Below, one piece after another: positions 444 to 48,687 of a DNA stretch of 64,000 bases (its first letter is position 1; every line of letters begins with the position of its first letter). The notes under the pieces were generated by a model that saw nothing but the letters and a program-made list of their open reading frames with translations, ran no database searches and was not told the origin of the DNA. The position numbers and the translations under genes are program-made. The stretch comes from Octopus vulgaris (taxonomy: Eukaryota): positions 30,008,001 to 30,072,000 of the forward strand of contig OX597826.1 in the NCBI GenBank assembly GCA_951406725.2, in the 5' to 3' direction.

Positions 444-529
<86 letters not shown>

Positions 530-553
530 ATCGTGTTGCTGGATAAAAATGAT

Positions 554-922
<369 letters not shown>

Positions 923-9967: not shown

Positions 9968-10573
9968 CTTAATGTAGGATAAATTTTTTTTCGAAAAAAT
10001 CCTTTTCCCAAAAAAATCTTATCAATGGCCAGCATATTAAAAAATACCTTTAAAGGTTAAATTTATAAACAATTCATAAATAAGGGCAAACGAAAAAATT
10101 TCTAATGCCAAATATGCCGAAAAATTGGACATATTGTCCATTAACCATTAATTTTTTCACACTTCGCACGCTAATCGAAAAAAGGTCGACAGAAATTTCT
10201 AAAAAATTCCATTATTACCATATCGAACCGATTTCAGGTTTAGCTTATAACAGCCCTCCCTTCGTCAGTGATACATGTGGCAAAAGAAATAAATGAGATA
10301 CTTACTCATACCCATGGAAGAAGCAAAACACTAAGTCATGAGCACAATCATTTATTTCTTTTGCCACATGTATCACTGACGAAGGGAGGGCTGTCATAAG
10401 CTAACCCTGAAATCGGTCCCATATGGTAATAATGGATTTTTTTAGAAATTTCTGTCGACCTTTTTTCGATTAGCGTGCGAATTGTGAAAAAATTAATGGT
10501 TAATGGACAATATGTCCAATTTTTCGGCATATTTGGCATTAGAAATTTTTTCGTTTGCCCTTATTTATGAATT
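9965..10573 (-). mobile_element. PLE-type pseudo-LTR fragment with a 226-bp inverted duplication and two hammerhead motifs
   Basis: Arms 10071-10296 and 10348-10573 are near-perfect reverse complements with a 51-bp spacer. The left side extends unpaired to (TA)n, and both ends abut (TA)n. Confidence 0.85.
10370..10425 (+). ncRNA. Minimal type I hammerhead ribozyme motif (mirror copy at 10219-10274, -)
   Basis: gtatca-CTGACGA-AGGG-agggctgtcataagctaa-CCCT-GAAA-tcgg-TC. In the mirror copy the stem I partner gatatg follows. Confidence 0.7.
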
Positions 10574-10653
10574 ATATATATATGTATATATAAATATGTA
10601 GACATATCTATATCTATCTATCTCACTATATATATATATACATATATATTTGT

Positions 10654-26016: not shown

Positions 26017-27350
26017 ACATTACAACGGACTTTCAGTTTTCGTCTACAAAATCTACATTCAAAGCTTTCATCGGCCCGAGGCTATGGTAGCAGACGGTTG
26101 CCCAAGGTGCTTCGCAGTGGGACTGAACCTGGAACCATGTAGTTGAGAAGTAAACGTCTTAACATACAAATCTACCTCTTGTATATTCTTTATTCAACAT
26201 TTATAATCGGGAAATTTATACACGATACTTTATAATATATAGTGGCTCCCCCAAATTTCAGAATATTTTTCATTCATTACGGTTTAATTATAATTCATAT
26301 TTAAGAAGTCGCATAAGTTTCTTAAAACGATTTAACATATTCAGTTTAGGGAACATAAACAGGCTGGTACAACGATGAGGAAAAATACTCAAAATTAATC
26401 TTTGACTAATATTCTTTTAATTGTTTAGATAAATATGGGAGATAACTTACGACATGTTTAGGCTTTATTTAACCTCATCAATGAAACCAAAACTTCGTGG
26501 CATTTAGAGAAGTAGTGAAGACCAAATCATTAAACAAACGTACCAGAATATACATCTGTTGGCATTCAACCGAGTCTCTTCATGACGTCGATTATATTGC
26601 GTCTTCTAATCCCCTCATGATCAAGAATGAAGCCACCTCTGAAATTTTCTTTCCTGCACACGATTCTTCCTGTAACATTTATTTGCAGCTCTTTAATCTC
26701 ACCGGTCTATGAGAGTCGACGAAGGCCGGAGACACGGCTCTTTCCTCCAGACTATGCTAATTAATAAATAAAAAAAGATGATTAACAATATCTAACCTAA
26801 ACAAATTATATCTGATTATCACGAAACATTACTATTTTCAGAAATGCTCATTATTTTCACACATTTCTACGATTTCGTTAATTTATAATTATACTTAAAA
26901 ATCAATTCTTTGGAGATTCATGACTTTTCGCTTGCAAAAGCAAAGAAAAAAATTGTAAGCTAACTGATTTCTTATATATTATTAACATCTCTGGGTATGT
27001 TATATATGGATATATGTTCGTAAGTAAGAGTTTTATTACGTATGTATCTATGTACATATGTATGCATGTGTTTGTAAGTACGTATGTATACATACATGCA
27101 TGTATGTGTGTATATATATATGTATGTGTGTATACATATATAAACATATGTATGTATGTATACACATGTGAGCAACTATTAGTTTCATTCCTCTTAGCGA
27201 GTTGTATACTTTCAGAGACATGAAACTAATAGCTGCAGGAATTTGAATCCCATGTATATTAAATGAAATTTTATTTCTCGCTAGGTGGAGTACTTTCTGT
27301 TGATCCCACATATAACAGAACAGTACACTATATGTATATATATACACGTA

Positions 27351-27550
27351 GCACGGATTTTTGTCAGTGAACAGGTTGCGGTCTTATAGCGACGAAAATA
27401 TTTTGACAAATTAAACTTAAATGTTGAAGTGAATCGAACGGATTTTGTGTGTTTCTTAAATGGCTTATAAACACCTTCCACGCTGCAATTGTTTTCGTTC
27501 CAGCACACGATCTCAGATCAAATCACTTGCTATGCAAGTACATCTCCGTA
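27351..27550 (+). mobile_element. Short HHR-like element (G3:C8 core) in (TA)n
   Basis: tttgtca-GTGAACA-G-GTTGC-ggtcttata-GCGAC-GAAA-atat-TT-tgacaaa. Homologous to 35239-35381. Confidence 0.7.
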
Positions 27551-41528: not shown

Positions 41529-41996
41529 TATATTGTATAGAGGGCATTATTACACATAAATGCCACACGCCGAGAGGGACATAAGTCATTACTACCAAAA
41601 TTTTAACTAATCATACCTAATGCAGTTTCTGAAGCAAGACATTTAAAAAACTGAATTTAGTTCTATATCACCTGTGATTTCGCAATTAACGTATCAATTA
41701 ACGTATTTGATACGTTAATTGCGAAATCACAGGTGATATAGAACTAAATTCATTTTTTTAAATGTCTTGCTTCAGGAACTGCATTAGGTATGATTAGTTA
41801 AAATTTTGGTAGTAATGACTTATGTCCCTCTTGGCGTGTGGCATTTATGTGTAATAATGCCCTCTATACAATATAAATAAATATTTTCAAGTGAAAAAAT
41901 TATTTTCGAATTTTTTCTCTTATGAGGTTTTTCACGCTAACTACCTGATAATTTCTTGTTAAGATTCCTTATTAAGATTTTAGCCTTAATTGTTAA

Positions 41997-44435: not shown

Positions 44436-44509
44436 CTACGTACCAATGGTTTCACTTGTTAATATCTACGTATGCAAACACACAGATATTTGGAAGATTG
44501 TCAGCATAG
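44436..44509 (-). ncRNA. HHR-like fold with extended stem II, inside an approximately 540-bp island flanked by (TA)n (44257-44797)
   Basis: CTATG-CTGACAA-tctt..aatatct-gtgtg-tttg-catac-gt-agatatt..aagt-GAAA-CC-att-GG-TA-CGTAG. Stems I, II and III all pair; position 8 is A. Confidence 0.6.
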
Positions 44510-47624: not shown

Positions 47625-47840
47625 GAGGTGGCGAGCGGGCAGAATCGTTTGCACGCCAGATAAAATGTTCAGCGGTCTTTGTTCGTCTTTACGTTCTGAG
47701 TTCAAGTTCCGTCGAGGTCGACTTTACCTTCCATCCTTTCGGAGTGGTTTAAATAAGTACCAGTTGAACACTGGGGTCTATGTAGTCGATTTATGCCCTA
47801 CTCTACTATTGCAGGCTTGGTGCCAAAATTTGAAGCCAAT
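47625..47840 (+). mobile_element. SINE family B
   Basis: ggtggcgagcgggcagaatcgtt...tgagttcaagttccgtcgaggtcgacttt...aataagtaccagttg. Further copies at 41090-41250, 51473-51670, 56835-57045 (-) and 57165-57375 (-). Confidence 0.8.
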
Positions 47841-47918
47841 ATTTTTACGTAAATGTCGAACAATGAGAATGACTGCTCAACACAGCATTGGTGGATGAAA
47901 TTTCTTTATACGTGTATT

Positions 47919-47970
47919 AAGGTACCATTGGTTTCATGTTAAGGAAATTATCCTAACAATTTGTCAAGCC
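47919..47970 (-). ncRNA. HHR-like motif with U3:A8 core (single-arm homologue of 554-774)
   Basis: ggc-TTGACAA-attgttagga-taatt-tccttaacat-GAAA-CC-aat-GG-TA-cctt. Stem I is weak. Confidence 0.5.
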
Positions 47971-48687
47971 GATTACACGGAAGAATGGCGTTGGTCTCAC
48001 TTTAATTTTCATATACGTATGCAACTATTTTCGTGTGTGATGACCTATTTAGAAACAATAATGTTTTTTAATAACAGTTCTTTCCTTAATTTCGAGCATC
48101 TTCTGCCCCCTCTTGTATGGATACCCCACCTCCGTTATTCTTTCTATTCCTTCATCTCTTCCTTTCTTTCCTTCTCTCCCCTTTAATCCTCTTCGAAACC
48201 ATCATTTCTCTTCCACATTTCCTCTTTGTTTATCTTTCACTCGCCTTATATTGTTTCTTATTTCCGTCCTTTACTTTCCTCCCACCGGAAAATAGTATGA
48301 ACTTTTTTTAGATCGTTCAATCTTTCTCAACCAATCAATGGAGCGATCAAATAAACCAATCAATAACAAACCTACAATGACTACTGGAAACAACTCTAAG
48401 TCAAATTTACTGCAATAAAGAAAAAAATTGTAACGGCCATTATTTATGCCTTGTCTTGTATACCACTCTGTGTAAAAACCTGTATAACAGAAGCACAACC
48501 ATGGATTTACAATATGAAATGGTGATGAAGTATAAACTCGGATCTTACCACAAAAATACGCAGAGTTATAAACTAATCTAAACACTGTTGTTAGCCAGGT
48601 GCACTAACAATATTGTTAGCTTGGTGTACAGAATAAAGTAATCTCACTGGGTTGTTTAATCCCTCACAAATAACTCTGCTTTATATA

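Follow-up and report, generated by a model that had tools for sequence, protein, structure and literature searches.

A probable slow U3:A8 hammerhead, carried by a Hydra-clade Penelope-like element of Octopus vulgaris and decayed in the copy at 47919..47970

Penelope-like elements (PLEs) of the Hydra clade, as given by Craig et al. 2021 (PMC8557442), combine a CxCx5C linker and a CxxC/CxH endonuclease end with insertion at (TA)n. Their hammerheads have already been published in octopus in the same source, where that of Hydra-1_oBim (supplementary file S2) has a C3:G8 core and the same helix III as the family described below. Minimal hammerheads with a U3-A8 pair are known from the PLEs of Schistosoma mansoni (~1,300 hits; Cervera and de la Pena 2014, PMC4209133), and PLE hammerheads are described there as slow dimers. 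U3-A8, U10.1-U11.1 and an A inserted after A6 (A6a) have each been seen singly in nature, with U3:A8 natural and active, U10.1-U11.1 tolerated and A6a of low activity (Perreault et al. 2011, PMC3088659). For PAc (Poseidon of Anolis), Frangieh et al. 2024 (PMC11167929) describe cutting that required and was assisted by the protein, an internal start of reverse transcription on uncut RNA, and ribozyme mutants that still inserted. A preliminary description of the locus analysed here treated U3:A8 as a third core state; this core is rare but not new, having already been reported in these sources (PMC3088659, PMC4209133). Our literature searches returned nothing on a U3:A8 Hydra family or a PLE core indel series, and Lunse et al. 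2017 may describe such variants.

The locus lies at 47919..47970 of a 64,000-nt stretch of O. vulgaris contig OX597826.1 (positions 30,008,001 to 30,072,000, forward strand; hereafter the window). All the letters claimed for it are present: TTGACAA from 47967 (-) is followed by a 25-nt hairpin, GAAA (47935), CCAATGG and TA (47924-47923), and TTGAAAA stands at 624 (-) and 704 (+) with the same GAAA-CCAATGG-TA. The three cores announced in the preliminary description are therefore real, but those at 624 and 704 are the two arms of one inverted pair, leaving two insertions. The pattern core-gap-GAAACCANTGGT matched three times in the window and 0.00 times in 100 dinucleotide shuffles. Likewise, across the 2.8 Gb genome a stricter pattern gave 135 exact matches against 0 for the reversed control, and a looser one, which includes sister families, gave 1515 against 58. 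Of 100 copies chosen independently, 5 match the strict pattern, so that its 135 matches put the family at roughly 2,700 copies. The features are collected in Table 1.

Table 1. Features of the 47919..47970 copy and of the inverted pair in the same window (window coordinates).
Feature	Position	Strand	Basis
Assigned pLTR copy (3' UTR, hammerhead and tail), 5'-truncated, Hydra-clade PLE, subfamily A2	47846..48003	-	
First core box, 8 letters, TTGACAAA	47960..47967	-	Sequence; letter 5 versus letter 6 variation
Stem II with one bulge and 5-nt loop	47936..47959	-	Family covariation
G12 A13 A14 A15.1, palindromic helix III (CCA-A-TGG), U16.1, A17	47923..47935	-	
Proximal stem I, 5' strand (GGC)	47968..47970	-	
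Proximal stem I, 3' strand, broken (CC for GCC; G1.1 deleted)	47921..47922	-	
Distal stem I helix, 5' strand; partner 47911-47916	47974..47979	-	MFE structure, family pairs
Distal stem I helix, 3' strand	47911..47916	-	MFE structure, family pairs
Post-ribozyme tail, the 5' leader ahead of the ORF in longer copies	47846..47910	-	
Longer arm of inverted pair, same subfamily, core at 624, ends in (TA)n	527..671	-	
Shorter arm of inverted pair, core at 704, ends in (TATC)n	667..776	+	

Short copies of the family have ~170 bases in common, with a fixed end followed by a microsatellite and often an inverted second arm. Among 100 tail-picked copies (the 100 listed of 103 matches, chosen by their tail alone), 87 had a microsatellite behind them, and 36 were preceded by an inverted segment of the family. 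Longer copies reach 5' into broken ORF pieces with stops, in which the reverse transcriptase motifs ITLKDHK, FDIIEFYPSI and GLYRDDGL lie upstream of the hammerhead motif. The CxCx5C linker was found at four loci (L036, L069, L085 and L089), accompanied by WFNPPY in L036, and an endonuclease end CxxC..E..N..CxH in L052. Reading by eye added a DKT motif in L264 and an N-terminal RRMKWK in L285 and others, with K for R relative to RWK. Pfam returned no significant family for 3/3 short ORF fragments. Used as a query, the endonuclease end gave 150 scored matches, with the motif region downstream in 23 of the 30 loci fetched; across these 23/30 ORF-picked loci, 24 BLAST pieces of the motif region lay downstream of the ORF. 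Locus L268 is a near-full copy of ~2.6 kb that begins with tail sequence (2512-2563). Ribozyme, tail, leader and ATG stand in a row in 11 of 30 leader-picked loci, with L287 and L288 looking like one duplicated locus, and this arrangement is the usual pLTR-ORF junction.

The size under 3 kb, the (TA)n targets and the pLTR with tandem or inverted 5'-truncated copies are those of the Hydra clade, and from its sequence we assign 47846..48003 as the end repeat (pLTR) of a Hydra-clade PLE. The CxCx5C linker, CxxC/CxH endonuclease end, DKT, ~2.6 kb length, (TA)n insertion and hammerhead in the 3' region are shared with Hydra-1_Obim and its clade as described in PMC8557442, where the N-terminal motif of the clade is RWK and not the MKWK seen here. 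In supplementary file S2 of that source all Hydra hammerheads start CTGA..GA (C3:G8), whereas the octopus family has U3:A8, and its later subfamilies, unlike the published Hydra hammerheads, carry one extra core letter. The family is distinct from Hydra-1_Obim, which is present separately in the genome (L173, which hardly differs from the published element at its 3' end). A Naiad identity was considered and dropped, as the endonuclease end is C-terminal and directly ahead of the 3' UTR.

Several observations were made around the element itself. Most long arms end at CATTTAC, where the leader continues RTATC, a short likeness to the (TA)n targets that could serve to prime reverse transcription. 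The tail contains the word GAGCAC, which the sequences published for Hydra-2_Amil and Ajap also have. Near family copies there is another Hydra-like ORF (L006 2227-3035; L024 2184-2423), a more distant one with ~40% identity at the endonuclease end. Directly beside the copy, window positions 47630-47845 hold very high-copy short repeats, with a jump in depth at 47804-47845; these repeats may be pieces of SINEs, which they resemble.

Grouping 338 aligned copies on the columns that lie outside the first box gave ten subfamilies, to which 333 copies were assigned. B1, B2, B3, B5 and B6 have the seven-letter box TTGATAA, and B4, AT, AG, A2 and A1 have an eight-letter box of the form TTGAANAA, in which N is T, C, G or A. 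UGA was intact in 166 eight-letter boxes (75 seven-letter boxes were tallied separately, and boxes that were truncated or damaged were excluded), and letter 5 was A in 162 of these. Letter 6 was A in 139 and otherwise T (13), G (10) or C (4), sorting by subfamily (p 1.5e-5), in a pool that came partly from the strict search fixing letter 6 as A and is thus biased against variability there. With letters 5 and 6 both left free, 23 hits, including two pairs that are arms of one insertion, comprised AA 10, AT 7, AG 4, GA 1 and CA 1, the last being the 47967 copy. As letter 5 is nearly constant and letter 6 varies, letter 6, the A8 of the preliminary description, whose proposed A8G mutant exists naturally as subfamily AG, would be N7, and the extra A would follow A6. 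The eight-letter core is therefore likely, as judged from these alignments, to be U3:A8 with an inserted A6a, and the earlier numbering is probably off by one. Likely letters for 47960..47967 are then U3 U4 G5 A6, C at the inserted A6a, A at N7, A8 and A9.

This bears on the earlier statement that only the free position 7 varies among the cores, which is not supported: the C of the 47967 copy is near-private (1 of the 23 hits with both letters free, 2 of the 166 eight-letter boxes, and 0 of the 100 strict-pattern genome matches listed), and the variation between subfamilies sits at the next letter. The C is likely a mutation at the inserted A and not at N7. The closest subfamily of this copy is A2, from whose majority it differs by ~16 mismatches in 151 aligned bases and two gaps, one of 8 nt (one unit of a loop II duplication) and one of 1 nt.

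A seven-letter core free of any insertion can be read in B1, B2, B3, B5 and B6 and not in AT and B4, and the register of AG, A1 and A2 is ambiguous; in the A-run both registers are possible for the RNA. It is conceivable, if rather unlikely, that the A-run subfamilies (A1 and A2, including the 47967 copy) use the register of the preliminary description, U3 U4 G5 A6 N7 A8 A9, with an extra A behind it or with an A10.1:U11.1 pair and a bulged U. In that case, when letter 6 became A, a normal seven-letter core would have been regained, with the C at tolerant position 7. The published PLE consensus has its extra base after A9, Schistosoma family 4 being written UUGAAAAA (supplement of PMC4209133), and the C3:G8 sister families, in which G10.1 is followed by a bulged U before the stem begins, align gap-free to the eight-letter boxes and so allow this register. 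A-type subfamilies also make up 64 of the 100 tail-picked copies and are the least diverged (8.5%, against 14.6% for the 36 B-type copies). However, this register gives U3-U8 or U3-C8 mismatches where letter 6 is T or C (T in 7 of the 23 hits), and the boxes of B1 and AT differ by just one A, which also speaks against it.

In an unrooted subfamily tree, in which several nodes have 59-74% support and AT comprises 4 copies, the eight-letter boxes lie at both ends with the seven-letter boxes between them, and the extra A was therefore likely gained or lost at least twice. Rooting with the C3:G8 outgroup gave flank identities for family D of 5/8 with four B subfamilies and 2/8 with the A types, and none for family C, a weak lean of the root toward the B subfamilies. 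Given the lower divergence of the A-type copies, the A-run is probably the latest core state. We tentatively entertain, as a minority reading, that the lineage, still active, shifted the register of its ribozyme core by one base. A seven-letter U3:A8 core would have received an A after A6, giving a slow A6a state in which letter 7 drifted from U to G, and the resulting A-run would have slipped back to a seven-letter register with a new A10.1:U11.1 pair, coinciding with the youngest and largest burst.

Further characterisation of the fold under the A6a register showed U3:A8 in all ten subfamily majorities, so that a hammerhead-type motif with this pair, as first proposed from the window, is borne out for the family. 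G12 A13 A14 A15.1 and U16.1 H17 are present, H17 being A, or U in B4. Proximal stem I is GGC/GCC in nine of the ten majorities (TGC/GCC in B4), with the distal helix also present, and the earlier reconstruction of this stem from degenerate copies was correct at that level. None of the three window copies has it intact: the 47967 copy is without G1.1, the 624 copy has AGC and the 704 copy GCC/CTC. Stem I is closed at N1.1-N2.1 by C:G in the family and by U:A in sister families C and D. The pair G10.1-C11.1 is absent from all subfamilies, with U-U, or A-U and a bulge, at that place. In the 47967 copy stem II pairs 8 nt with 9 nt and requires a one-base bulge, and its base has a U10.1-U11.1 mismatch or, in an alternative register, A10.1:U11.1 with a bulged U.

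The preliminary description had called for a covariation test, and on an alignment of 12 real copies, hand-picked, related and themselves the source of the structure, stems I and II do pair across subfamilies. In this alignment 91.5% of 223 cells were paired and six pairs had double changes; among 500 shuffles, one equalled the number of pairs and none the score, and slid controls reached at most 51.9% paired and two pairs. Stem II was paired in 92.7% of its cells, with double changes in four of its eight pairs, and U3:A8 was present in 12/12 copies. We take this comparison of related sequences as support for the fold and not as a probability. Minimum free energy (MFE) structures were the three-way hammerhead for the B1, B2, B3 and B5 majority motifs and not a hammerhead for the five eight-letter subfamilies and B6. 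U3 was often paired with A17 in the MFE folds, and in A1 stem II is lengthened by a new helix.

Like the Schistosoma variant, for which PMC4209133 gives the first boxes UUGAUAAA and UUGAAAAA, the latter with the same letters as here, the octopus family has a long helix II, a short helix I, a palindromic helix III and opposite-strand pairs. In contrast, G10.1-C11.1 is highly conserved and helix III minimal in the Schistosoma hammerheads of that source, and here U-U stands at 10.1/11.1, as in the Penelope_HM families (PMC8557442), with a helix III of 3 bp. Stem I is here extended with an internal loop, and the subfamily series places the extra base after A6.

The preliminary description would have been refuted by a motif no more conserved than the rest of the element; in the 100 tail-picked copies the core did change less. 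It had 55 substitutions at 836 sites against 85.3 expected from a base-matched background (p 0.0003), although both this background and the deficit may be inflated by sequence context and by sub-subfamilies that were not separated. A previous count, from which 16 indel-bearing boxes were excluded, gave 48 against 80, and the A1 and A2 copies, also with indel boxes excluded, gave 26 against 40.8 (p 0.014). Core gap openings numbered 12 (0.014 per site, background 0.0095). Stem I (67 substitutions, 71.5 expected) and stem II (123, 122 expected) were conserved at copy level as the background is, as were loop II and helix III, and the motif was intact in only 8 of 71 copies spanning it. We infer that the core deficit reflects differences among source elements that avoid the core, with selection acting on source elements and not on these copies.

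These results make it very improbable that the likeness to a hammerhead is chance in an AT-rich repeat. Focused Rfam scans gave no hammerhead hit for the copy or a B1 copy, and the single copy folds no better than its shuffles (z -0.84 and -0.12), as would be expected of chance. However, Rfam also missed the C3:G8 sister control, the motif sits where Hydra elements carry hammerheads, and the helix III shared with the published octopus hammerhead, the covariation and the core conservation largely refute this explanation. An Rfam scan of the whole window yielded, in the 150 listed of 529 weak hits, microsatellite and hairpin matches to miRNA models.

We consider it probable that 47846..48003 is a decayed, 5'-truncated pLTR copy of a Hydra-clade PLE whose U3:A8 hammerhead would be slow in source elements, acting as a dimer or with the help of protein, and that this copy is inactive. 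Deletion of G1.1 makes the pair beside the cut site, predicted after 47923 (-), impossible, and the copy is therefore predicted to be a broken member of its family. There is no sign of a host role for it, no RNA record was listed as carrying it, and no contigs spanning its locus were found in four other runs. In the source elements, tandem copies would give a transcript in the order 3' UTR, hammerhead, leader and ORF. Two motifs would pair through the palindromic helix III and cut after GUA; such dimer cutting is likely because the helix III 9-mer has a computed energy of -8.2 kcal/mol as a dimer and 0.0 as a monomer, where it does not fold. Cutting would be slowed by the A6a insertion, the U10.1-U11.1 mismatch and possibly a U3-A17 trap pair, by analogy with the C3-G17 trap pair described in PMC3884650. 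The deviations reported in PMC3088659 are single, and here they would be combined in a retroelement lineage estimated at thousands of copies.

The element protein would then nick (TA)n DNA and, using RNA that is mostly uncut, begin reverse transcription within the leader, which would account for the 3' ends of copies. These fall into two groups, ~15-30 and ~65-75 nt past the predicted cut, with the alignment stopping at ~+72, and so resemble the two sites at which the Anolis element starts reverse transcription (PMC11167929). 5' truncation and inversion would leave copies such as 47846..48003. Two 3'-end classes, a tail that matches sequence within or immediately before the start of the ORF, and AT-rich targets are likewise described for PAc, which belongs to another clade and whose ORF starts inside the ribozyme, compared with ~140 nt behind the cut site here (PMC11167929). 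Cut RNA as the insertion template was rejected, as it has left no genomic trace: in 3 of the 100 tail-picked copies the 5' end lies no more than 3 nt from the predicted cut, roughly the number expected if 5' ends were evenly spread. This is in line with the uncut RNA described as the main template in PMC11167929. Contigs from four runs that we only guessed to be RNA contain parts of the family; some of these cross the cut site, and they do not share an end. One mini-element, L305 (G000:C4:20471427-20474562), shows in both arms a junction between the beginning of the ORF and the sequence that starts, within 1 nt, at the predicted cut site; this single case, from one insertion, could be a trace of cut and religated RNA.

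Alternatively, the ribozyme could be vestigial in the eight-letter subfamilies, no longer cutting and kept by descent or as a protein-binding structure, since transposition would need no cleavage. The combination of A6a, U10.1-U11.1, a possible U3-A17 pair and a 3-bp proximal stem I points this way, as do the MFE folds of the eight-letter majorities, which are not hammerheads, the 5' ends that do not pile up at the cut and the ribozyme-dead mutants that still inserted in vitro (PMC11167929). Nevertheless we judge it unlikely, as the core deficit is also seen in A1 and A2 copies, the changes between subfamilies fall where change is tolerated (at N7, the loop base of helix III, H17 from A to U, and loop II), and A1 has gained a new helix on stem II. 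A slow, source-element hammerhead remains our preferred reading.

The preliminary description had also argued that three 3:8 pairings in a single window indicate selection on the fold. This argument is not supported, because the three families differ in all stems and flanks and are high-copy, and co-occurrence is not covariation. Better evidence comes from sister Hydra families C and D, which have the same helix III with C3:G8 and U7; this evidence amounts to a single change. Upstream of the hammerhead of family D lies an endonuclease end of Hydra type (L215). As these sisters share helix III yet have C3:G8, the step from C3:G8 to U3:A8 appears in the sequence comparison as one compensatory event within one clade. 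Profile hits to the C3:G8 Hydra-type families C and D occur in the window at ~28200 (-) (L091, near 2367-2379) and 35518 (-).

The other two families of the window are separate examples of Watson-Crick 3:8 pairs, their best 40 scored matches being mostly 94-99% alike. The C3:G8 family is represented by an inverted pair at ~10070-10575, whose cores lie at 10268 (-) and 10376 (+). This family has A10.1:U11.1, and its helix III is longer; it is multi-copy and young, with best matches 95-98% alike. The G3:C8 short element at 27345-27550 (+), with its core at 27367, is a clean minimal hammerhead with a 7-bp stem I, G10.1:C11.1 in stem II and a palindromic AATATT helix III. It is young and high-copy, with best scored copies 94-99% alike and inverted and tandem insertions at (TA)n. 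Our literature search found G3-C8 only as an engineered variant, and this element may merit more interest than the U3:A8 copy. Elsewhere in the window, the word GAAACCATTGGTA occurs at 44441-44453 (-) in a different context, possibly another decayed hammerhead, and a near-perfect 101-nt palindrome at 41652-41752.

PLEs may or may not need their hammerheads: the motif is widely kept, yet cutting is slow and was dispensable in the one in vitro system (PMC11167929). The octopus genome offers about ten related subfamilies whose cores lie one letter apart (U7, A6a, G or A at the next place, A or U at H17), complemented by C3:G8 sisters with the same helix III, and a few short RNAs could reveal the weakest core with which an element can still amplify. 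This U3:A8 class would be overlooked by descriptor searches that demand CUGANGA. The register series is the part worth bench testing. If the register-shift reading is true, the subfamilies would be a natural fossil series tying cutting rate to transposition success.
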